From: Candidatus Sericytochromatia bacterium
GTDB taxonomy: Bacteria > Cyanobacteriota > Sericytochromatia > UBA7694
Assembly (NCBI GenBank): GCA_018780035.1
Contig: JADMKE010000014.1
Coordinates: 9,271 to 73,270 of the forward strand
Length of the DNA stretch: 64,000 bases
Direction: 5' to 3'
Shown here: piece after piece, positions 1,362 to 64,000 of the stretch
Numbering within the stretch: the first letter of the stretch is position 1
Layout: each line of letters begins with the position of its first letter
Translations under genes and position numbers: made by a program
The notes under the pieces: model-generated
What the model was told of the DNA's origin: nothing
What the model saw: only the letters and a program-made list of their open reading frames with translations
Database searches by the model: none

Positions 1362-4300
1362 ATGAAACAAAAACCCCGTCTGCGTCGCACCCTAATTGCC
1401 GTTTTGACCGCTTTGAGCGGCACATTAGGCAGCGCATTGGGCAGCAGCTTGCCCATGCAGTCAGCGCTTGCTTTTTGGGGGCCGAGTGTCAACCACCCCG
1501 AAAGGCAATGGCAAGAGATCAACACACCCCATTTTAAAATCCACTACTACCAGGGCTTCGAAGATCTGGCCAAACTTTCCGCTCGGATCGCCGAAGAGGG
1601 ATTTGAAACCATTACCCAAGATTTGGGTGTGGCTCCAGATGAAAAAATTTCCCTGATCATCTCCGAAGACGAATTTTGGAATGGCTACGCCGAACCGGCC
1701 CGCAATCGCATTGTACTCGACCCCCGTTTTTCTTTGGAAGCCCCAATCGGCATCAATCGCTTTTTATTGCATGAAATGACGCATATTTTTAACTTCCTGG
1801 CTGTGCAAAAAAAGGTGTTTGGCTCCAATTTGATCAAAGCCTCGGGATTGCCGGCTTGGTTTGCCGAGGGTTTGGCCCAATACGAAGCTGAATACTGGGC
1901 CCCTGAAAACGACCGCATGTTGCGCCTGCATTTGCTGAATAACTCACTGCTCAGCCCCGCTGAGCGCAACGCCTTTACAGCCCTCTCAGGCAAAGGTTCC
2001 GAAGGCTATAACGAAGGCTATGCCCTGGTCAAATTTATGTTTGAGACCTACGGGCGCGATAAATTGCCGCTGCTGCTCGACAATTACCGCGATATGAGCG
2101 CCGATTTTTACCAGGCGATTGCCTTTACCTTTGGCAAATCCCTGCTCGAAATCGAAGCCGAATGGCGGCAGGCCCTGGCTGAACGCACCCGCGAACAGGT
2201 CAGCTCACACCAAGAAAATATTCCCACTGCCACGGCCCTCATTCCCTACAGCCCCAACCGCACTTATTTTCAGCCCAAACCCTCTCCCAATGGCAAATGG
2301 CTGGCTTACCAGACCTCCGGCGGCTACCCCCTGGTACGCGGCCAAATTTACCCCGTTCAACCGCTGATGATTGCCGATTTGCAACAGATTCAGGCCTATG
2401 GTGCCCAAGAAACGAAACGCCGCGAAGAAGATAAAAACAAAGACAAACCAGCCCCTGTCAAAGCCACACCTCCCCCCGATCTCAAAGAGCCCGGCCTGCA
2501 TTTTAAGCATAGCGATCACCTGCCCGAGTTTGCTGCCAACGAAAAATTGGAGTTGGACAAAATCCAAGAAAAGGTCGTGGAGCGCACCCAAGATTATGCC
2601 TGGGGGCCCGACAGTAACCAATTGGCTTATACCCTGCTGGTGCCGGATGCCTATGGCAATTCCACCAAGTCTGTGGAAATTCTCAAACTCAAAGAGCAAG
2701 AGGGCAAACTCAAAGCCGACGGTGCACCTGAACGGCTCTTGCCCGGTCAGACCGTGCACTCTCCGGCCTGGTCTCCCGATGGCAGCCGTTTGGCATTGGT
2801 CTTGGAAGAAAAACAGCGCGACGCCATTGTGATCTACAACCGCGCTGAGAAAAAAATTGAGAAGACCCTGCTTCAGGCCCCCGACTTCCGGCAATACCAA
2901 GGCCTCAACTGGTCTCCCGATGGCAAAGCTCTGGTGGCAGAGGTCTATTTGCCCGGCGAAGGCCAGAGCCTGATGCATCTGGATCCCCAGGGCCAGCAAG
3001 CTCCGAAGCTCTTGACCGAGTCCAGCAGTCTCTATGCTGATAAACAGCCGATTTGGAGCCCTGACAGCCAATTTGTTTATTTTGTCTCAACCCGCAATGG
3101 CTTTACCAATCTCTACCGCCACCAGTTGAGTACAGGCAAAAGTGAGGCCCTGAGTGATGTCTATACCGGGCTCGAAATTCCCAGTTTAAGTGCCGATGGC
3201 AAAGATCTCTGGTATATTCGCCACCACGCCCAGGGCACCACCCTGGAACAGGTGGGCACTTCACAACTCGCACCTGCTGCAGCCCTGGCCGAAGAATTGG
3301 GCGATTCCCTGCTGACCCAAAACGACCTGAATCTCACCCCCCTGGGAGAGAGTTCTGAGCCCAAGAATTACGAGCCCTGGATTGCGCCCGAAGTCTTTGT
3401 GCCGGTGGTCGGGCTGGATGAAAAAGGCGATCAATTGGGTTTTCTGATGCAGACCGGCGACTTGCTACAATTGCACAATTTTAATGTGCTCTTTCTCTAC
3501 GGTTTGGCCAGCTCACGCATCAGCTATAACACGGCTTATGTCAACCGCTTTTTTGACACCAGCTTTTCGGTGGAAGTGGGCGATTCTCCCCTGCTCTCGT
3601 TTGCCACCGATGGCAGCGCCTATTTTATTACCCGCGACCAACAAATTTCACTGGCCGTCAGCCGTCCCCTGTTTAATCCGGGTACAGGCGATACCTCCGC
3701 CACCCGCGTCCGCCGCTTTGCCAGCTTGGAGTTTGTGGCCTCACACCAGACCAATTTGCGCAGTGAACTCGCAGGTCTGATCGACGACAAACTGCTGCGC
3801 CAGGGTTGGAACAACAGCCTCAATTTGACCTGGGCGGCCAATGAGTCGGTCCGCAACAACGACGGCATTCGCTATAACGTAAATTTATCCGCAGGTGGCC
3901 CTTGGCTGGGCAGCCAATACAGCTTTGCTGCCGCCAACGCCAATTTCCGCCATTATATCCCCCTCTTTGGCGACCATACCTTGGCCTACCGGGTGGATGC
4001 CACAGCCATGACAGGAGAGACCCGCCCAGCCCTTTTGGGAGGGCCCCCTTTGAGCAATTTGCTTGTGCTCAATTTTCAGAATATTATTCCCTTGCGCGGC
4101 TTTCGCATTGCTGAATTGCAGGGTTCAATGATGACAGCGGCCAGCCTTGAATACCGCTTTCCGCTGCTCAAAGAGCTTAATTTTAACATCGGTGGGCATT
4201 ATCTCGAAAACCTCAGCGCCGCTGCCTTTATTGATGCCGGTGATGCCTGGTTTCCCAATAAACGCACGATTTATCCCCACGTTGCCGCTGGTTTTGAGCT

Positions 4301-13984: not shown

Positions 13985-14197
13985 GGAAACAGCCTCTGTA
14001 TATATTGATTAATCTTTAATAGTGTGATATACGTATACGCGTGCATACTATACACAAAATCATCTGGATTGCTAATTTTCAATAATAATTTAATACCAAA
14101 TTAAATATAAGGAATGAGATTCAAAATTGTTGAACATTAGACAAGAATCACATCCTAAACGCTATTCTCGAATACATTCCTCACAAGGTAAAATCCA
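13985..14197. promoter_or_regulatory. AT-rich leader of the island with ~33 bp dyad-symmetric element (TATACGTATA / ACGCGT / GTATAC)
   Basis: The element is gtgtgatatacgtatacgcgtgcatactatacac at ~14023..14056, inside an extremely AT-rich 200 bp stretch upstream of the methyltransferase. Confidence 0.35.
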
Positions 14198-17100
14198 GTG
14201 TCAAAGCCATTAACAGCACTATACAAGGAACTCGATTTTTTAAATGGTGCTCTGTATACAGCTTCCGATACACCCTTAAAAGAGGTAAGTCCCCTTGAAT
14301 GGGTTGAAAAAGGCGAATGGTTAGCAGCAGCCAAAAGAGCTGGGGCAGAAAAAATCTTCTTTATTGAGAATAACCCAGTCGTTGTGTTTGCTGAGTGCGA
14401 TTCTGCTCCTGAAGAAAAGATCAAAGCCTTTAACCGAATCTGGAGTCTTGCTCGACCACGTTTATTATTTCTAGCCTCTCCCACTGAGATTACAGTATTA
14501 GATTTAGCCCAAGAACCCATTTTAGGTAATAAGCCGAATGAAAAAAACCGAAGCCTTAAAAGCTTGGCCACGCTTCAAGACATTTCCAAAATTGCCATTG
14601 AACTCCAAGCCTTCCATCGGAATAATGTTGAGTCGGGCAAGGTTTTTGGAGAAGAGCTTTTTGGTGATTTAAAGCATCGTGCAGATCAGGCTCTTATACA
14701 TGATATCAAAGCCGTTCGATTTGAATTGCTTGCTGCTGGTTTGCCCGTAAAGTATGCCCATGCATTGATAGGGCGCTCAATCTTTATTCGTTATTTAGAA
14801 GACAGGGGAATTCTAACAAAAGAATATTTTTTGAGTGTAGCAAAAAATAATGCCGAATGGTCAGCCTTGCTAAGTAAAGAGTATGTAGGATTGGGAGTAG
14901 ATCTATCCGAACAAGAAGTTTATTATCCTCGTGTATTATCTTCAAAATCGTTCTCGTATGCTTTATTCAAACAGTTAGCCCATGATTTTAATGGGGATAT
15001 GTTTCCCGACATTCAAGAAGAAGAGCAAGCTATCACAGAAAAGCAATTAGAACTTATTCAAGGTCTACTTTATGGAGAGGTGGGTCGGCAAAAAAAATTA
15101 TTTTTCTTTTCCTATCGATTCGACATAATCCCTCTTGATCTGATCAGTTCTATTTATGAAGAGTTTTACCATTTAGCCCTTAGCCCTGAAAACAAAAAAA
15201 ACAACGCGCGGCAAGATGGGGCATATTACACACCGCCTGTTTTAGTAGAGTTTTTGCTGGCTAGAATTTTAGATCCTGAGACCCTTGAAAAGAGTCCACG
15301 TATTTTAGACCCGGCTTGTGGATCGGGTATTTTCCTTGTTGAAGCCTTTCGCAGAATTGTTAGGTATGATTGGCATAAAAAGAATAAACGCCTGGATTTA
15401 AGTGAACTCAAATCAATTCTGAAAAATCAGATTGCTGGCATTGAAATCAATGGTGAAGCAGCCCGTATTACAGCATTTAGTCTATACCTAGCTACACTAC
15501 ATTATCTTGATCCACCCTCCATCATGGGGCAAATTAAGAGCGGCCAGAAACTGCCTAATTTATTAGTCTCGAATACAGTATCACCCAATCACTTTAACTG
15601 TATCTGGGCAGAAAAAAATGCTTTTAATTCTCAGGAGATAACAGAAAACCAACCTCTATTAGAAAAATTTTGCTCTGGAACCACTGACATCGTTATTGGC
15701 AACCCGCCATGGGGAGCACCAGGTAATAAAGCTGATAAAAAAACAAAAGCCCGCGAAAACACTATGTTGGATTGGTGTAAAAGTAATTCTAGACCTATTG
15801 GAGACAAAGAGCCTTCTCAAGCCTTTATCTGGCGAGCCTTTGATTTTGCTAAAGTTGGTGGAAAGGTTGCGCTACTTGTATCTGCCGGTGTTTTGTTCAA
15901 ACACGGGACAACTACCCAGGAATTTCGTGAAAAATGGTTGGATTCTGTACACTTAAATGAAGTATTCAACTTTAGTCATGTACGCAAATTCTTTTTTAAT
16001 GGTGCAGTGTCTCCTTTTGTAGGAATTACATTCACTAAACAAGCGCTCTGTAAAGAAAACGAAAATGTCACCTATTATTGGTCTGCAAAGCAGGTTAACA
16101 CTTTAACCAAAACACAAGCTGTCGTGTTTTCAAAATATGATGTTCATCTTCTAAAAAATGAAGATCTGAGTTCAAATATTAGTTGGAAAACATACTGGTT
16201 TGGCCGTTCTGAAGATCTAACGTTAATTAAATTGCTATTGTCTAAAAAATCATTATCTGAGTTTATCGAGCATGCGGGAAGGGGTTATGAGATTGCATCT
16301 AAAACCGAAAATGCCTCAGTGCTAGCAAAATATAATGCTCTTGATATCCGCTCCTTCTCTCGCTATGACGCAATATCTTTTACTTCCCCTCCAGAACGAG
16401 TTTATAGATTCGGAAACACCGCACTTTACTCTGGCAAACGGATTTTGGTAAAAAGAGGGATTAGCGAAAACAGTGAACCAAAAGGCCAAATTACGGCAAG
16501 GTATGAAGAAGACGATTTTTGTTTCAGAAATGCAATTCACGGCATTAAATTACTGGATGACCAAGAATGGCAATACAAAGTCTTATTAGGCATTCTTTGG
16601 TCATCCCTCACAAGATACTTTTTTTTCATGGTTTCGTCTAATTGGGGGCTCTGGCATCATGAAATACACCTGAAAGATGAATTGTTAAAGCTTCCGGTCG
16701 TGCTTGATAATACACACCCGGCTACCAGCAAAATTATTGCTATTGTGGATTCTCTCCGGAACTCTAAAACCGCTGAGAACAGTCTGTTAGATCGTTTGGC
16801 CGATAATTACCTTGAAATGCAGATAAAACGCAATCAATGGGAAGAGGAGCTTGATCAAGCTGTTTTCCAACTTTATGGACTGAACAATGAGCATCAAGAT
16901 TTGATTAGAGATTTTTGTGAGATCACATTACCCTATTTGTATCAACCTTTTACCTCTGAAGGTATTGCCCCTGTTACTGAACGAGATAATGAGTCTTCGT
17001 TAAAAGAGTATATTCAATTATTTTCGAGACGCTGGAACGCATATCTAAACGAAGATGAAGAAATGAGAGCAACCATTCATATTGGTGCTGACAATAACTT

Positions 17101-17392
17101 AGTCGCATTAGAATTCTTTCCATCTGAAAAAGGTGATAGTTGGGACTTTACGCCACACTATAATACTTGGGGAGATGTTCTTAAGGAAATGGGCAAGTCT
17201 TTGCATAACCCACTTGGAAATTCACAAATTGTTTTAGAGGGCATTGTTCATGCTGTCACCGATGATGCAATTATTATCATCAAAAGGAATGAAAAACGTT
17301 TCTGGACAAATAGCTTAGCAAGAGAAGATGCTGATGCTACCCTTTGCAAACGTATGCTTGCCGATAATATAAGGAGCAAAATAGAGGTTTAA
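14198..17392 (+). CDS. large gamma-class N6-adenine DNA methyltransferase, PglX/MmeI/Type IIG-like (no recognisable N-terminal nuclease or ATPase)
   Basis: GTG start. In order: helical-region motif FDIIPLDLISSIYEEF; motif X QDGAYYTPPVLVEFL; motif I ILDPACGSGIFLVEAF; motif IV TDIVIGNPPWGAP. Roughly 550 aa follow after NPPW, which is a candidate TRD. No Walker A motif. Composition is visibly AT-rich compared with flanks. Confidence 0.85.
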   Translation: MSKPLTALYKELDFLNGALYTASDTPLKEVSPLEWVEKGEWLAAAKRAGAEKIFFIENNPVVVFAECDSAPEEKIKAFNRIWSLARPRLLFLASPTEITVLDLAQEPILGNKPNEKNRSLKSLATLQDISKIAIELQAFHRNNVESGKVFGEELFGDLKHRADQALIHDIKAVRFELLAAGLPVKYAHALIGRSIFIRYLEDRGILTKEYFLSVAKNNAEWSALLSKEYVGLGVDLSEQEVYYPRVLSSKSFSYALFKQLAHDFNGDMFPDIQEEEQAITEKQLELIQGLLYGEVGRQKKLFFFSYRFDIIPLDLISSIYEEFYHLALSPENKKNNARQDGAYYTPPVLVEFLLARILDPETLEKSPRILDPACGSGIFLVEAFRRIVRYDWHKKNKRLDLSELKSILKNQIAGIEINGEAARITAFSLYLATLHYLDPPSIMGQIKSGQKLPNLLVSNTVSPNHFNCIWAEKNAFNSQEITENQPLLEKFCSGTTDIVIGNPPWGAPGNKADKKTKARENTMLDWCKSNSRPIGDKEPSQAFIWRAFDFAKVGGKVALLVSAGVLFKHGTTTQEFREKWLDSVHLNEVFNFSHVRKFFFNGAVSPFVGITFTKQALCKENENVTYYWSAKQVNTLTKTQAVVFSKYDVHLLKNEDLSSNISWKTYWFGRSEDLTLIKLLLSKKSLSEFIEHAGRGYEIASKTENASVLAKYNALDIRSFSRYDAISFTSPPERVYRFGNTALYSGKRILVKRGISENSEPKGQITARYEEDDFCFRNAIHGIKLLDDQEWQYKVLLGILWSSLTRYFFFMVSSNWGLWHHEIHLKDELLKLPVVLDNTHPATSKIIAIVDSLRNSKTAENSLLDRLADNYLEMQIKRNQWEEELDQAVFQLYGLNNEHQDLIRDFCEITLPYLYQPFTSEGIAPVTERDNESSLKEYIQLFSRRWNAYLNEDEEMRATIHIGADNNLVALEFFPSEKGDSWDFTPHYNTWGDVLKEMGKSLHNPLGNSQIVLEGIVHAVTDDAIIIIKRNEKRFWTNSLAREDADATLCKRMLADNIRSKIEV

Positions 17393-18072
17393 TGGCACGT
17401 AAAGCACTGCCCTCTTTTTCTGCCTTATGGGAAAAACATGAAGAAATTTATACAGGAGTGTTTAAGGCCGCTCTTCAAAGGTTGTCTGAAAAACATTTAG
17501 ATCTCTCACATGAAGATCGGATATCCGAACAGCTTTGCTTAATATTAAATCAGGTCTGTTATGAGATAAGTAATCCTGAGAGAGAAGTTCCAAATCCAAT
17601 TTGGGAAAATCCAATCCATCCTGTATCAGAGGACGAGCTTACAAATGGACGAAGCAACAAAAGGCCTGATTTTACTTGCAAGAAAGTAAACAGCTTTGCA
17701 ATAGATCCTAGCGAACATGAAATTAGTTTTCATATTGAATGTAAACGGCTAGGAAGCCCGACAAGTAGAACATGGGTTCTAAACGAAAGATATGTTACGA
17801 ATGGTATTGCACGTTTTGACTCAGCGCATGAATATGGTAAACGCGCAAATTCTGGCATGATGGTTGGCTATATTATCGATATGGAAGCAGACCAAATACT
17901 GGCAGAAGTAAATCAACATCAAAAACGTCATCTATCACATAACCCGACACTATCGTTTAACTTTGATGGAAACAAAGTAAGTACAGCGGTACAAAATTTG
18001 CAAAGACAAAATGTCCTTCCTCAAAGATTTAGGCTTTCGCATCTTTGGGTTGATTTAAAGACCTGCGCATAG
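17392..18072 (+). CDS. PD-(D/E)xK-like putative restriction-endonuclease-fold protein, translationally coupled to the methyltransferase
   Basis: TAATG stop/start overlap with the methyltransferase. Motif: KRPDFTCKK...EISFHIECKRLG, i.e. PD ... ExK. A diverged paralogue is at 63003..63674. Confidence 0.7.
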   Translation: MARKALPSFSALWEKHEEIYTGVFKAALQRLSEKHLDLSHEDRISEQLCLILNQVCYEISNPEREVPNPIWENPIHPVSEDELTNGRSNKRPDFTCKKVNSFAIDPSEHEISFHIECKRLGSPTSRTWVLNERYVTNGIARFDSAHEYGKRANSGMMVGYIIDMEADQILAEVNQHQKRHLSHNPTLSFNFDGNKVSTAVQNLQRQNVLPQRFRLSHLWVDLKTCA

Positions 18073-60844: not shown

Positions 60845-60874
60845 CTTGACAAATTTTAAAGTAATCGATTAGAG
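60845..60874 (+). promoter_or_regulatory. sigma-70-like promoter (TTGACA-17-TTAGAG/TAGAGT)
   Basis: TTGACA at 60845..60850 with a 17-18 nt spacer to a -10-like hexamer. Confidence 0.4.
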
Positions 60875-60936
60875 TCAAAAATACGCAGCAAAAAAACGCT
60901 GTTTCAAAAATAAAAAATAACGAAAGGTATAAAACG

Positions 60937-60999
60937 ATGAGCAACAAAATGTCCTTACAACTGCAATTGTGTCTGCTCAGGTTGATGGGTGCTTCATAG
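60937..60999 (+). CDS. 20-codon small ORF (MSNKMSLQLQLCLLRLMGAS) between promoter and terminator
   Basis: An RBS aaagg lies 9 nt upstream of the ATG, and it ends 24 nt before a strong terminator. It could instead be part of an sRNA. Confidence 0.3.
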   Translation: MSNKMSLQLQLCLLRLMGAS

Positions 61000-61022
61000 C
61001 CCAGATCAATCAGTTTTGTACT

Positions 61023-61070
61023 GAGAGAGAACCGGGAAGCGCCCACAAGCCTTCCCGGTTCTCTCTTTTT
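61023..61070 (+). terminator. intrinsic terminator: 15-bp perfect stem (GAGAGAACCGGGAAG / CTTCCCGGTTCTCTC), 11-nt loop, T5; followed by (TG)5
   Basis: I checked the inverted repeat base by base. A U-tract follows only on the plus strand. Confidence 0.8.
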
Positions 61071-61101
61071 TGTGTGTGTGAACTTTGAAAATCAAATACA
61101 A

Positions 61102-61183
61102 GTCGGCGTGTCCGAGTGGTTAAGGAAGCAGTCTGCAAAACTGTTGGGGAAACCCGTCGTGAGTTCAAATCTCACCGCCGACT
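61102..61183 (+). tRNA. tRNA with anticodon GCA (Cys) and discriminator U73, but class-II-like long variable arm (14 nt) and 3-bp D-stem
   Basis: Manual fold: acceptor GTCGGCG/CGCCGAC; D TCC-GAGTGGTTAAG-GGA; anticodon stem GCAGT/ACTGT with loop CTGCAAA; variable TGGGGAAACCCGTC; T-arm GTGAG-TTCAAAT-CTCAC. CCA is not encoded. Confidence 0.65.
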
Positions 61184-61231
61184 CTGAAGTTGCTCCCATC
61201 ACATGGGTGAAAATGGGCAACTTCTCTTTTG

Positions 61232-61307
61232 TGCGCGAGTGAAGGGAATTTGGCATACCTCAGATACTCAGAATATCTGGTTTAAGCGTTCGAGTCGCTT
61301 CTCGCGT
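61232..61307 (+). tRNA. tRNA-like gene, anticodon CAG (Leu) but class-I shape (5-nt variable arm); imperfect D-stem
   Basis: Acceptor GCGCGAG/CTCGCGT (G1-U72). Anticodon stem AGATA/TATCT with loop CTCAGAA. T-arm AAGCG-TTCGAGT-CGCTT. Needs tRNAscan/ARAGORN confirmation. Confidence 0.45.
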
Positions 61308-61313
61308 ACCTTT

Positions 61314-61387
61314 TGCCGCAATACCCCAATTGGCAGAGGGAATAGGTCGAGAGCCTATTCAGTGAAAGTTCGAGTCTTTCTTGCGGT
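61314..61387 (+). tRNA. tRNA-like gene, anticodon GAG (Leu), class-I shape, C33 in anticodon loop
   Basis: Acceptor GCCGCAA/TTGCGGT. Anticodon stem (G)AATAGG/CCTATT(C) with loop TCGAGAG. T-arm GAAAG-TTCGAGT-CTTTC. Atypical, and may be a pseudo-tRNA. Confidence 0.4.
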
Positions 61388-61392
61388 ACTGA

Positions 61393-61472
61393 GGTCCCTG
61401 TGGCGTAACAGGTAGCCGCATCTGCCTTAAGAGCAGACGTTTATTCGTGGAGGTTCGAATCCTCTCAGGGAC
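61393..61472 (+). tRNA. tRNA-Leu (anticodon TAA)
   Basis: Acceptor GTCCCTG/CAGGGAC. D GCG-TAACAGGTAGC-CGC. Anticodon TCTGC-CTTAAGA-GCAGA. 11-nt variable arm. T GGAGG-TTCGAAT-CCTCT. Discriminator A. Confidence 0.8.
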
Positions 61473-61476
61473 ACTC

Positions 61477-61560
61477 TGTCGGAATGGGGGAATTGGTAGA
61501 CCCGGCAGGCTCAAACCCTGCTGCTTTAAAAAGCGTGAGAGTTCGAATCTCTCTTCCGAT
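61477..61560 (+). tRNA. tRNA-Leu (anticodon CAA)
   Basis: Acceptor GTCGGAA/TTCCGAT. Anticodon GCAGG-CTCAAAC-CCTGC. 15-nt variable arm with hairpin. T GAGAG-TTCGAAT-CTCTC. Discriminator A. Confidence 0.8.
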
Positions 61561-61627
61561 ATTGACTTTCTGAGGTCAAAGAATCAGAATCAATCCAGAC
61601 AGTCTAGATTTAAAAAAGGGGTGCTTC

Positions 61628-61879
61628 ATGTCCAAAAATTGGCAACTTCAAGAGGCAAAAAATAAATTCAGTCAGGTGGTCGATTGCGCGTGTAACGAAG
61701 GCCCCCAAATTGTGACACGACACGGAAAAGAAACCGTGGTGATTCTCTCACTTGAAGATGACCAAGAACTTTTAAAGCCCCAAAACGCCTTGGTCGATTT
61801 TTTTGCGGCATCCCCTTTAAAGGGCTTGAATTTAGATCTGGAAAGAAATGCTTCAGCACCCCGACCTGTTGATTTATGA
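61628..61879 (+). CDS. Phd/YefM-family antitoxin
   Basis: MSKNWQLQEAKNKFSQVVDCACNEGPQIVTRHGKETVVILSLEDDQELL is the typical Phd/YefM fold. ATGA overlap with the following PIN toxin ORF. Confidence 0.85.
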   Translation: MSKNWQLQEAKNKFSQVVDCACNEGPQIVTRHGKETVVILSLEDDQELLKPQNALVDFFAASPLKGLNLDLERNASAPRPVDL

Positions 61880-62019
61880 AATATCTGCTGGATACCTGTC
61901 TTCTCTCTGAATTACTCAAGCCACAACCCCAAGAGACTGTGATTGAATGGTTTCAAACGGTTCCAGAAACACAGCTCTATTTGTCTGTTTTGACCCTGGG
62001 AGAACTTCATAAAGGGTGA
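61876..62019 (+). pseudogene. vapC: vapC (PIN-domain toxin) truncated after 47 codons
   Basis: MKYLLDTCLLSELLKPQPQETVIEWF...VLTLGELHKG then TGA. A full PIN domain is ~130 aa. TTAGCAA-type AT-rich repeats follow immediately, and composition drops to AT-rich. Confidence 0.75.
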
Positions 62020-62138
62020 GGGCAAGTTACAAGTTTAAAACCGGTGCTAGATTTAGCAAATTAGCAATGGTGTCAAGGGCAGTGAGTTAGTAAGGTAGTA
62101 ATTAGCAAATGACAATAATTCTTTTAAAAATTCAACAA

Positions 62139-62903
62139 TTAAATTTTTATATCAGCTGGTGAATTTCTTTTTTGAGAGCTTTCTTCTTTACTCATAAAAT
62201 CTTTATACATTCGGATATTGTTTTTTAAAATATTCGAATCTTTTGTCGCTTCAGATCTTGATCTTATTTTTAATGTTACATAATCTCGATTTCCCAACAA
62301 ACCTGTACTACTAACTTCATATCCATATTTTTCCCCCAAATAAATTTTTACGTTTTCTGCCCAAGCAAAAATTTTAAATTGAGAATTTTTCTCAATTTGC
62401 TCTCGAACATATTCGCCTCGGGTTTCTTCTGTATATTCTGTTCCTTGAAAAATTAACTTTGACCTAGAAAAATCATCAGCGAGACTTTTGCTATAAACCT
62501 TTGTTAACAGAAGTTGAGCTTTTGAGTTTTCTCGAGTCCAAATATCTAAATATTCTACATCCTCCCATAGTCTTGAATCAGTGTATTGACTAATTTCTTT
62601 ATCTCGATTATATTTTCTTTTTACAAGAGAAAGTGTTTCTTCTACTAAGTCGGCTTTTTTATCGCCCATTCGATTGGAAGTAGGATATGAAAGTTCAATA
62701 TCTAGGAAAACATTATCTTGCAACTGGCGAAATGCAATTATCCGCCAGACATCCATAGAATCAAGAGGACCAATATAATAGGTAGCTAAAAACGGATGTC
62801 TATTTATCCAATTAATGGTATCTTGGTATTTGTCTCCAGGAAGAGCATAAGCAGAATGACAAATCGATACAAATACTGATGTTAATAACAATATTTTTTT
62901 CAT
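62139..62903 (-). CDS. secreted hypothetical protein (AT-rich island 2)
   Basis: Signal peptide MKKILLLTSVFVSICHSAYA. Lys/Glu/Tyr-rich with low-GC codon usage. Confidence 0.6.
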   Translation of the reverse strand: MKKILLLTSVFVSICHSAYALPGDKYQDTINWINRHPFLATYYIGPLDSMDVWRIIAFRQLQDNVFLDIELSYPTSNRMGDKKADLVEETLSLVKRKYNRDKEISQYTDSRLWEDVEYLDIWTRENSKAQLLLTKVYSKSLADDFSRSKLIFQGTEYTEETRGEYVREQIEKNSQFKIFAWAENVKIYLGEKYGYEVSSTGLLGNRDYVTLKIRSRSEATKDSNILKNNIRMYKDFMSKEESSQKRNSPADIKI

Positions 62904-63002
62904 ATAGTCAATATTCCTAATATATCAATTATTTCTGACTCTAAATGAGTCCCAAGGTACACTTTCTGATGTTTGGCAAATGGCGAAGAATTTTAAGGTA
63001 AT

Positions 63003-63674
63003 TTAAACATCGGCAGAAACTATCGTTGCTCTGAAATCCAAAAAAACATGCAATAAATCAAGATGACTGCCATCTGAGCGGGTATGCTTACTTTCCCATT
63101 CATGGGGCAAATCTTTGAGAACCTGGACTTTTTTTAGGGGTTCAACAATGTTTAAAGTTGGATCCTCTTTTGAATTATCAAAGATCTTTTGTAATTGTCT
63201 AAACCAATGATCTGGAGATAAGTCCTGAATATAAGCCAACATTCCCGCTTCGGGCTGCTCCACGGCATACTCACATTTCAAAAAACACTGCATACCCCCA
63301 TCACCAGTATATTTACGGATAGTATGAGTACCTTTTTTTAAACGTTTGGCCTCAAAGCAAAATTTGGGTCGTGGTTTTGTGTGACTGTTAGAAATCACAA
63401 TATCTATGCGTTTGCGATTTTTTCCAGAAGCGGAAACATGTGGAACATGGGTTTCTTCTCCGATATGATAGTGTTCATATTCTTGTGGAGTGTCTCGATC
63501 ATTAAATCTTAAGTCTATGGCTTCTGTTAGCCAACCAGTGATATCTTCTTCTTGATTTTCGGGAGTCACTTTTGATTTGATATCTTCGTATCCCCAAGCT
63601 AAAAGCTGATGCACACACTCTCTAACTCTCGAAAAGTAAGTTTGCCAGAGAGCGTCTGGCTTATTTAAAATCAC
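63003..63674 (-). CDS. PD-(D/E)xK-like protein, paralogue of the 17392..18072 protein
   Basis: KRIDIVIS...KFCFEAKRLKKG...YTGDGGMQCFLKCEYA aligns to RPDFTCKK...ISFHIECKRLGS...YVTNGIARFDSAHEYG. The N-termini also match (ALWQ vs ALWEK). GTG start overlaps the upstream ORF stop (GTGA). Confidence 0.65.
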   Translation of the reverse strand: MILNKPDALWQTYFSRVRECVHQLLAWGYEDIKSKVTPENQEEDITGWLTEAIDLRFNDRDTPQEYEHYHIGEETHVPHVSASGKNRKRIDIVISNSHTKPRPKFCFEAKRLKKGTHTIRKYTGDGGMQCFLKCEYAVEQPEAGMLAYIQDLSPDHWFRQLQKIFDNSKEDPTLNIVEPLKKVQVLKDLPHEWESKHTRSDGSHLDLLHVFLDFRATIVSADV

Positions 63675-64000
63675 ACAAACGCTCCTGAATAACTCAGAAT
63701 CTCAGCAATGATTTCATCAGCATCAATCATGGCTTGGGTACATGTCCAATCTATCAAACGCGGAGTTTTCCAGATATGATAATATTTCCCATCCAAAACA
63801 CGCAGACCTTGTTGAACATAGAGCCATTGGCTAAAAGGCTTTTTTAAAATCTGCCATAGATGCTCATCTTCCTCAGATAGCTCTTCAAGTTTTTGAATAT
63901 AGGGAGCAAGCGGCTCTAGAGCATCAGTTATTTCTACAGTACAGGAAATAAATTCCGAGTATTGTTTTATGTTTATGAGATGATGTTTGTATGCAAATGA
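63671..64000 (-). CDS. hypothetical protein, N-terminus off-window, translationally coupled to the PD-(D/E)xK paralogue
   Basis: The minus-strand frame is open from the window end to the TGA at 63671..63673 (...KTPRLIDWTCTQAMIDADEIIAEILSYSGAFV*). No domain recognised. Confidence 0.5.
   Translation of the reverse strand, partial: SFAYKHHLINIKQYSEFISCTVEITDALEPLAPYIQKLEELSEEDEHLWQILKKPFSQWLYVQQGLRVLDGKYYHIWKTPRLIDWTCTQAMIDADEIIAEILSYSGAFV

Follow-up and report, generated by a model that had tools for sequence, protein, structure and literature searches.

The closest described counterpart of the genes considered here is the type I tRNA-Leu(CAA) of Streptomyces coelicolor (Fan et al., 2019, NAR, PMC6614811). 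Its variable loop is 5 nt long (ACAGC), and the only leucyl-tRNA synthetase (LeuRS) of that organism leucylates the tRNA, which is found alongside class II tRNA-Leu; the gene is essential and resisted deletion. In the literature that we searched, 'type I tRNALeu' as a term occurs in this paper alone, and no other bacterial type I tRNA-Leu is described. Here, we analyze two adjacent tRNA-Leu genes of such short-arm architecture, with the anticodons CAG and GAG, in a 64 kb stretch of contig JADMKE010000014.1 from a Candidatus Sericytochromatia bacterium (the whole of this stretch is henceforth called the window). On balance, we favor the view that they are functional tRNA-Leu genes, that they form genes 2 and 3 of an accessory operon of five tRNAs (~0.9 kb; henceforth the cassette) in this Sericytochromatia ('Blackallbacteria') relative, and that the operon is under leader-peptide attenuation. 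The premise of the original prediction, an earlier reading of the window, that all bacterial tRNA-Leu belongs to class II is outdated in light of the S. coelicolor gene, of phage tRNA-Leu genes of 73-77 nt and of the presence of the same CAG-GAG tandem elsewhere.

The variable loop of the S. coelicolor tRNA resembles the yCAGU of the family delineated below, a comparison that is one of variable loops, as the paper prints no full tRNA sequence (PMC6614811). It differs in its anticodon, CAA, and in being a single gene for which no tandem CAG-GAG block, leader or cassette is described; moreover, it is presented as rare, whereas our data comprise a broad family found in phages and several phyla. 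The 73-77 nt tRNA-Leu genes of phages share with this family the D arm (CCCAAyyGGCAGAGG), the 5-nt variable region, the T arm and A73. However, they lie within arrays of 10-30 tRNAs that represent many isotypes, as opposed to the five genes on a bacterial chromosome behind a leader and a terminator seen here. Mitochondrial type I tRNA-Leu likewise lacks a long variable arm and has A73, but it is organellar and served by a dedicated mitochondrial LeuRS, and no sequence relationship to it is shown here.

Two further kinds of systems provide points of comparison. First, tRNA array units have been delimited as at least 20 genes at a density of at least two per kb (Tran et al., 2016, PMC4758250). 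The arrays of bacteria, including cyanobacteria, resemble the cassette in being redundant, horizontally mobile and variably present (PMC4758250; Morgado and Vicente, 2018, PMC5966550), but the five tRNA genes in the 64 kb of the window fall well short of such a unit. The tRNA-array survey and a 2020 review of non-canonical tRNAs make no mention of short-arm bacterial or phage tRNA-Leu. Second, classical attenuators, such as trpL, leuL, hisL and pheL, along with the actinobacterial leaders of aminoacyl-tRNA synthetase genes in the tabulated part of PMC8079986, combine a short open reading frame (ORF) bearing regulatory codons with a terminator and a mutually exclusive antiterminator that is masked by a ribosome at the stop codon, and the composition of the ORF tracks the product. 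These features have counterparts in the leader of the cassette, that of the antiterminator being a predicted one. The difference is that the classical versions regulate biosynthetic or synthetase genes, whereas the cassette leader would regulate tRNAs, would sense tRNA supply, and would have several isoacceptors sensed by one leader. In these terms, the locus would be a case of ribosome-mediated attenuation in which the regulated genes are tRNAs, and these tRNAs belong to a known but barely documented kind. No description of attenuator-controlled tRNA genes was found in the literature searched, and Rfam has no family for the cassette leader or for comparable leaders.

Architecture and distribution of the short-arm tRNA-Leu genes

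ARAGORN called five consecutive tRNA genes on the + strand, and none besides these in the window: 'Cys'(GCA) at 61102-61184, Leu(CAG) at 61235-61310, Leu(GAG) at 61315-61389, Leu(TAA) at 61394-61474 and Leu(CAA) at 61477-61562. The order of the cassette is thus a Ser-like tRNA(GCA) followed by Leu CAG, GAG, UAA and CAA. Covariance-model boundaries place the type I tRNA-Leu(CAG) at 61233-61308 and the type I tRNA-Leu(GAG) at 61315-61388, both on the + strand. The original prediction had accurately described the pair (Leu anticodons CAG and GAG, 5-nt variable regions, G1-U72, a TTCGAGT T arm, and C33 in one copy) and had the right locus, though with each end of its interval, 61232-61387, one base off.

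When aligned end to end to a structure-aware model of the family, both genes are 7/5 cloverleaves with every helix formed: each has a 7-bp acceptor stem with G1-U72, the discriminator A73 and a 5-bp T stem with the TTCGAGT loop. The 7-nt anticodon loops are CUCAGAA in the CAG gene, which has A37, and UCGAGAG in the GAG gene, hence its C33; no re-fold yields a different anticodon, and the assignment of the original prediction stands. The variable regions, GGUUU (CAG) and UCAGU (GAG), are each 5 nt long, unlike those of class II tRNA-Leu, which exceed 10 nt and contain a stem. The Rfam model RF00005 matches the GAG gene over its full length (model positions 1-71) with 45.7 bits, against a gathering score of 29. 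A family-specific covariance model, built without the lineage of the window and run over 2.5 kb, recovers the GAG gene as a typical member with 79.4 bits (E 4e-23) and the CAG gene as a divergent one with 42.1 bits (E 9e-12). The match to tRNA genes is far from what chance would give, and we consider it very likely that both are genuine tRNA-Leu-type genes.

Both retain elements that are relevant to LeuRS and characteristic of the family (A73, U8, A14, A15:U48 and G18G19), and G3:U70 is absent from both. The tertiary (Levitt) pair A15:U48 is characteristic of tRNA-Leu. Because the elements that LeuRS is seen to use in systems studied to date are kept, and identity marks of another amino acid are missing, we infer that the two tRNAs are most likely charged with leucine and would read CUG and CUC/CUU. 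The GU...AC flanks of the CAG gene, which extend its acceptor stem to an apparent 9 bp, suggested a 9/3 structure like that of allo-tRNAs; this was ruled out by the 5-bp T stem and the 7/5 configuration of the family, the additional pairs arising between positions 73 and 74 and the bases at -2 and -1 that flank the gene. Mukai et al. reportedly described, in 2017, allo-tRNAs and selC*-type tRNA-Cys with non-standard mixes of body and anticodon, the allo-tRNAs having 8/4 or 9/3 acceptor/T branches. With their 7/5 configuration and short variable regions, the CAG and GAG genes differ from the allo-tRNAs, which have a long variable arm; it is the first tRNA of the cassette, with its Ser-like body and Cys anticodon, that resembles such mixed forms.

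To delineate the family, 111 distinct short tRNA-Leu sequences from tandem loci were reduced to 63 at <88% identity. Across these non-redundant members, 97.9% of the cells of the cloverleaf are paired, and 19 of its 20 pairs show changes on both sides. None of 500 shuffles paired as well, and sliding the 3' partners by 1-3 columns leaves 39-47% paired. A73, A14 and C13.A22 are found in all 63 members, U8 and G18 in 62 each, and A15:U48 in 60. Two features that the original prediction had singled out, G1-U72 and C33, turn out to be traits of this family, present respectively in 12/63 members and in 13 of the 21 GAG members. The nucleotide at position 33 of tRNAs is near-universally U. C33, which lies at 61348 in the window, is also found in three of eight viral short-arm tRNA-Leu(GAG) genes and, as we read the loop (CCCGAAA), in tRNA-Ser(CGA) genes from modules of Thermoanaerobaculia (L013, L016 and L053). 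Among the examined members with the anticodons CAA, UAA and UAG, it is nearly missing; the CAG members are uninformative in this regard, as their search pattern fixed U33. Many CAG and GAG members additionally have A37 instead of G37 beside G36.

With the cluster as query against phage genomes, BLAST aligned the GAG gene, with no gap anywhere from the D arm through the T loop, to tRNA-Leu genes that are annotated as such, 73-77 nt long and ~80% identical; these belong to Mycobacterium phage Tourach (tRNA-Leu(tag)), Erwinia phage Prophecy and Acinetobacter phage vB_AciJM_313. A scan for the tandem pattern, namely a short-arm tRNA with the anticodon CAG followed by one with GAG, recovered 17 species-representative genomes, 27 metagenome contigs and one IMG/VR contig. 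The 195-kb IMG/VR contig has a CAG-GAG-CAA-UAA tandem in which each gene is 73-76 nt long. The broader family pattern occurs in at least 120 IMG/VR contigs; in 80 loci among these matches, 109 of the 121 genes for tRNA-Leu are of the short type. Phage tRNA arrays commonly contain members of the family, which also occurs on the chromosomes of Thermoanaerobaculia, Thermomonosporaceae and Sericytochromatia. Its genes move together as a CAG-GAG(-UAA-CAA) block, both within the phage arrays and within small tRNA modules on chromosomes from several phyla. The breadth of this family appears to be undescribed. A search of a plasmid collection with the cluster gave a tRNA-Ser as its sole match.

Two contigs show further peculiarities. 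The large array of L030 is phage-like in its surroundings (HNH endonucleases and a tail spike). On L025 (~1680-2008), at least two tandem repeats of ~130 nt lie upstream of an intact short-arm tRNA-Leu(CAG), each consisting of the first ~30 nt of that tRNA (GCGTGCGTAGCCCAACTGGCAGAGGCACGG) fused to other sequence.

The leader of the cassette and comparable leaders

The window matches the metagenome contig L001 (Logan SRR12964611), to which its GGDEF-EAL protein led; exact-protein look-ups with the AraC and Phd ORFs, each read from its first start codon, gave no match. Four copies of the cassette, 97-99% identical, were found in relatives: a 'Candidatus Sericytochromatia' metagenome-assembled genome (MAG; L037), a 'Candidatus Blackallbacteria' MAG (L051) and the metagenome contigs L003 and L012. 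In the window, a sigma-70-type promoter at 60846-60875 (+; TTGACA-18-TAGAGT, 10/12 matches in a consensus scan), conserved in L003, L037 and L051, precedes a leader ORF of 20 codons at 60937-60999 (+; MSNKMSLQLQLCLLRLMGAS, then a stop) that has an ATG start with AAAGG ~10 nt upstream. Its codons 7-16 read TTA CAA CTG CAA TTG TGT CTG CTC AGG TTG, such that each of the five anticodons downstream (UAA, CAG, CAA, GCA and GAG) finds a match among the Leu and Cys codons of this run (TTA, CTG, TTG, TGT, CTG, CTC and TTG), with TGT being read by GCA through G-U wobble. This enrichment in Leu and Cys was equalled in two of 300 dinucleotide shuffles; relative to the codon usage of the window, the probability of at least six Leu codons in 19 is 0.018, that of at least one Cys codon 0.11 and that of all four codon types 0.13. 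The ORF shows just two substitutions across the four relatives, both of them synonymous.

Downstream of the ORF lies an intrinsic terminator at 61023-61071 (+), with a stem of 15-17 bp followed by U6 (-34.1 kcal/mol, z -7.0, none of 200 shuffles as good), which is invariant in the four relatives and ends 30 nt before the first tRNA. A simple terminator scanner misses it, apparently since its loop exceeds the scanner's limit of 8, while direct folds show it. A predicted antiterminator would form between a 5' strand within leader codons 15-20 (60981-60995, +; GUUGAUGGGUGCUUC) and 61034-61048, namely the top and loop of the terminator; the fold of 60975-61049 has an energy of -25.8 kcal/mol (z -2.7). 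In constrained folds, the antiterminator is kept with a ribosome at codons 7-12, shortened with one at codon 13 and lost with one anywhere from codon 14 to the stop, in which case the terminator wins. As modeled, the design of the leader follows the logic of a classical leader-peptide attenuator. The original prediction had offered a tRNA-derived regulatory element as one option for the short-arm genes; the proposed regulatory element sits upstream of the tRNAs, not inside them.

The layout of leader, terminator and tRNAs recurs before short-arm-Leu modules in Thermoanaerobaculia and in several metagenome contigs. For Thermoanaerobaculia, where the layout is seen on a complete chromosome, in several MAGs and on many soil contigs, a leaderless ORF begins 9-10 nt past the -10 box of a TTGACA promoter. 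It encodes CLLRSSSYLSL and variants thereof (MRCLLRSSSYLSLATARGIDV with its stop, MRCLCLSSSYLSL..., MRCLSLSLSSYLSL..., MRCLYLSLSYLSL... and MTRRLLLSASYLSS...), and after it come a G+C-rich terminator with a U tract and the tRNAs Ser(CGA)-(Tyr)-Leu(CAG)-Leu(GAG)-Leu(CAA)-Ser(GCU). Differences between the peptide variants preserve the reading frame and mostly involve Leu, Ser, Tyr and Cys. As folds that include 170 nt of unrelated upstream DNA are uninterpretable, these leaders were analyzed by duplex and sub-region folds, which show a 1:2 hairpin (CUGGC/GCCAG), a 2:3 antiterminator (CCAGGGGG/CCCCCUCGG) and a 3:4 terminator, an arrangement like that of trpL. A leader ORF (MIVRFSSQLTSSSSLLSRLTRGTA with its stop; FSSQLTSSSSLLSRL) and a terminator also stand ahead of three Leu and three Ser tRNAs on L035. 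Across six types of terminator-bearing leaders, the best complement to the 5' strand of the terminator lies at codons ~14-22 of the ORF in all six, with shuffle P values of <0.001, 0.001, 0.004, 0.022, 0.025 and 0.11.

Isolates of Thermomonosporaceae (Actinomadura, Thermomonospora and Spirillospora) have leaders with a strong Shine-Dalgarno (SD) sequence (MKRLLYRLPEASLALPGRYPTS with its stop; KRLLYRLP...GRY) before Leu(CAG)-Leu(GAG)-Tyr. These use the codons CTA, CTT and TAT, which are expected to be rare in such high-G+C genomes, and in the only module of this lineage that lacks tRNA-Tyr (L043), Tyr codons are likewise missing from the leader. On L021, a leaderless ORF at ~3685-3757 (MFAPRQTLLRLSRLA with its stop; RQTLLRLSRL) lies ahead of a module of four Leu and a Gln tRNA. 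It stops 5 nt before the first tRNA with no terminator between; if it is regulatory, its mechanism must differ from that of the other leaders.

For most of the chromosomal modules, 0-2 of 300 shuffles match the enrichment of the leader in the amino acids of its module, while four large-array or leaderless contigs, including the viral L009, had no significantly enriched leader ORF. Approximately 250 nt upstream of its Leu block, L009 does have a short ORF (MQRLRRSSTSLRLS with its stop) and a motif (CGACTTAGCTAGTC), both shared with the acidobacterial contig L041; in L009, a tRNA-Ser-like sequence that ARAGORN does not call comes after them. The enrichment test gave no significance for this ORF, which may be what is left of a leader in a phage. 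On L013 (~552-640) and at the corresponding place on L016, a tRNA-Ser(CGA)-like gene that sits ahead of the next tRNA, behind the terminator, is likewise not called by ARAGORN, although it calls the homologue on L053, and the gene lists of some modules are therefore incomplete.

Across lineages, the composition of the leaders tracks the tRNA content of their modules. Given this recurrence of module-matched leaders, we infer ribosome-mediated attenuation of tRNA operons, and hold it to be fairly probable that the leaders are attenuators. In the proposed mechanism, the cassette would be transcribed from its own promoter through the leader. Were the leader to be translated quickly, the ribosome at the stop codon would cover codons 15-20, allowing the terminator to form and keeping the tRNA genes off. 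Were Leu or Cys tRNAs to be scarce, the ribosome would stall at codons 7-13, leaving codons 15-20 to pair with the top of the terminator; the resulting read-through would supply the very tRNAs that were scarce. What the computation shows is the ORF, the terminator, the alternative pairing and the recurrence of composition-matched leaders, whereas translation of the leader, a switch by ribosome position and an operon that is on when these tRNAs are limiting are elements of the proposed model.

Alternative explanations

The first alternative accepts the leucine tRNAs as real but takes the upstream ORF to be coincidental, with the hairpin either being an ordinary terminator that leaks or marking where a small RNA ends, and the tRNAs being constitutively expressed by read-through or from an unseen promoter. 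We consider this unlikely, but several observations speak for it and weigh against attenuation. The duplex energy of the antiterminator of the window is only modestly above chance (P=0.022 against shuffles). Constrained folding of its leader revealed no evident 1:2 'anti-antiterminator' helix, and an untranslated leader would hence also read through. The five copies of the cassette are so similar that they afford no covariation test of their own and are too alike to test coding, and the statistics of leader composition were computed after the pattern had been noticed. Elsewhere, some Thermoanaerobaculia modules retain a Tyr codon in the leader despite the loss of tRNA-Tyr, and leaders from this group contain Cys codons with no tRNA-Cys in the module; the Thermomonosporaceae leaders have no clear terminator, and their consensus fold gave only SD/anti-SD-like pairing. 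Finally, a hairpin of 10 bp followed by UCUCUUUU lies at 61186-61230 (+; -17.9 kcal/mol, z -3.5), between tRNA 1 and the CAG gene, and remains paired in L003 with a different stem of 11 bp. It could be a second, weaker or partial, terminator or a processing element; as such, the Leu genes may be less coupled to the leader, and it complicates a simple one-operon model.

What disfavors a coincidental ORF is the recurrence of a promoter and a module-matched short ORF before such modules in unrelated lineages. Furthermore, wherever a terminator is present, its best complement falls at the 3' end of the ORF; the variation of the peptides is in frame and confined to the set of residues noted above; and the phage-array controls are negative. 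Within the cassette itself, the consensus scan detected no promoter-like site between the terminator and tRNA 1 from which the tRNAs could be constitutively expressed.

A second alternative, in our assessment rather unlikely, sees the cassette not as a spare set but as the main source of Leu(CAG, GAG, UAA, CAA) of the lineage under homeostatic autoregulation. In line with this, its four Leu anticodons cover ~98% of the Leu codons used in the window. The equivalents in Thermoanaerobaculia and Thermomonosporaceae, moreover, lie in conserved, ordinary chromosomal contexts, with genes such as those for a PfkB kinase, a methyltransferase, a Ser/Thr kinase and an ABC transporter flanking the modules of Thermoanaerobaculia and Spirillospora, and may have the same role there. 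However, the cassette is absent from L002, a more distant relative whose neighboring AraC regulator is 76% identical: it keeps the flanking genes (a glycosyltransferase, a Big_6 protein, a GGDEF-EAL protein, AraC, a small lipoprotein, Phd and PIN) with no tRNAs between those for the lipoprotein and Phd. In L003 (2160-3650 and 3741-3840), an IS605/TnpB element splits tRNA-Leu(UAA) after GTCCCTGTGGC, and unrelated sequence interrupts tRNA-Leu(CAA) in its variable arm, which would be lethal without other copies. Together, these two relatives imply that the cassette is an indel and that at least two of its genes are dispensable. The strong terminator also implies low basal expression, though CUG, UUG and CUC are the commonest Leu codons.

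A third alternative, which we regard as quite improbable, holds one or both short-arm genes, most likely the CAG copy, to be decaying pseudo-tRNAs, functionless relics of a horizontally acquired phage-type block. For the CAG copy, RF00005 gave no match at 61233-61308 even at E<=10 in a search of 801 nt, such that the refutation test put forward in the original prediction, a covariance-model score below threshold, comes out divided: the GAG copy scores above it in the general model, whereas the CAG copy falls short there and is recovered by ARAGORN and the family model. The D arm of the CAG copy is a further point. Its D arm has a 3-bp stem, as in the rest of the family, but the stem is a weak AGG/CCU with an extra nucleotide in the 8-9 linker, and the arm is weaker in the window than in L003. 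In the GAG copy, the anticodon loop is polymorphic among near-identical relatives (C or U at position 33, with U33 in L051 against C33 in the window, and A or G at position 37), which could signify relaxed constraint. The absence of the cassette from L002 and the insertions in the neighboring tRNAs of L003 would also suit decay. Against this, both genes have their four helices and the family invariants intact, and C33 and G1-U72 belong to the traits of the family. In the D stem of the CAG gene, both bases of each of the three pairs depart from the GCC/GGC of the family, yet pairing is preserved. Across the five copies, variable columns amount to 2.4-5% in the tRNA genes, with 3.9-4.1% in the CAG and GAG genes (small counts), versus 8-12% in the spacers, i.e. 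an approximately threefold difference. The six substitutions in the two short-arm genes either keep pairs (A-U to G-U, A.C to A-U) or fall in loops or the variable region, the three seen in the CAG gene all being compatible with pairing. Neither gene, therefore, shows the broken helices, lost invariants and neutral substitution of a tRNA pseudogene. Of the three options left by the original prediction, genuine isoacceptors fit best, whereas pseudo-tRNAs and tRNA-derived regulatory elements are unsupported.

Lastly, charging with another amino acid, which would lead to recoding or deliberate mistranslation of CUG/CUC, has precedents in class-switched tRNAs of mismatched identity (allo-tRNAs) and an echo in the mixture of a Ser-type body and Cys determinants in tRNA 1, but is highly improbable, given that most identities of class I architecture depend on the anticodon, here that of Leu, that G3:U70 is absent while A73 and A15:U48 form a tRNA-Leu signature, and that leucine acceptance has been shown experimentally for a tRNA of the same short-arm type. 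A related point that tempers leucylation is that the type I tRNA-Leu of S. coelicolor is not a substrate of the E. coli LeuRS (PMC6614811), and charging here would accordingly depend on the host's own LeuRS.

Neighboring features, possible role and implications

The remaining tRNAs of the cassette, which like the short-arm pair have the 7/5 configuration, include a further non-standard gene that the original prediction did not mention. This is tRNA 1 (61102-61183, +; ARAGORN; Rfam 58.4 bits), which combines a long-variable-arm, tRNA-Ser-like body with the anticodon GCA (Cys) and U73. It is 78% identical to a Ralstonia tRNA-Ser(UGA), and its D, variable and T arms are Ser-like. The main determinants for cysteinyl-tRNA synthetase are the anticodon GCA and the discriminator U73; tRNA 1 bears both on a Ser-type body, making it a 'class II tRNA-Cys' whose identity, Ser or Cys, is uncertain. 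It thus mirrors the class swap of the Leu genes, and the leader ORF contains one Cys codon. A derivation from tRNA-Tyr by a change of GUA to GCA was considered, as Tyr precedes Leu(CAG) in other modules, and was ruled out by its body, which is Ser-like and unlike those of these Tyr genes. The last two genes are tRNA-Leu(UAA) at 61394-61473 (+; ARAGORN; Rfam 54.9 bits), with an 11-nt variable region and G37, and tRNA-Leu(CAA) at 61478-61561 (+; ARAGORN; Rfam 52.1 bits), with a canonical-looking body, a 15-nt variable arm and G1-U72.

Beyond the cassette lie a Phd/YefM antitoxin gene (61628-61879) and a PIN/VapC gene (61876-62019) truncated after 47 codons; both are also present in L002, which lacks the cassette, and we draw no link between them and the cassette. 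From 62020 to 64000 the GC content falls to 35%. Probably an inserted island, this stretch carries, on the - strand, two ORFs without annotation and, from ~63671, the beginning of an MmeI-type restriction-modification gene. Another 4 kb at 14001-18000 has 38% GC against a window mean of ~51%.

As to what would trigger the operon, it is a matter of speculation whether this is routine homeostasis or the destruction of the usual tRNAs by a toxin or a defence nuclease. Tentatively, we entertain the possibility, though the odds seem to us to lie against it, that the cassette is an inducible reserve of 'disguised' tRNAs, whose leader would sense failed Leu/Cys decoding caused by a toxin, a phage or a defence nuclease. 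The replacements, with their swapped architectures (short-arm Leu, Cys on a long-arm Ser body, and C33 or G37), might then escape the attacking agent. The class swap, with a short Leu and a long 'Cys', together with C33, would suit such a role, and phage tRNAs are said to evade anticodon nucleases through loop changes. However, the only bacterial Schlafen nuclease yet characterised cuts, among others, tRNAs for Lys, Ala and Met, no long-arm preference is reported for it, and it thus lends no direct support to the idea of escape.

More generally, short-arm bacterial tRNA-Leu has been treated as a rarity by textbooks and by its single biochemical study, whereas our data delineate a large, covariation-supported family in phages and at least four bacterial lineages, usually in the form of a CAG-GAG tandem. 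This breadth raises the questions of which LeuRS enzymes accept short-arm tRNAs and why phages prefer them. Leader-peptide attenuation, in turn, may be in wide though as yet unrecognised use among bacteria for matching the transcription of individual tRNA operons to decoding demand. The tuning of individual tRNA levels in bacteria is poorly understood, and a leader that reads the codons of the tRNAs downstream of it would, if true, constitute a direct feedback from decoding to transcription. If, additionally, the cassette is a reserve of atypical tRNAs induced by stress or attack, it would link tRNA architecture to the conflict over tRNA-targeting nucleases.

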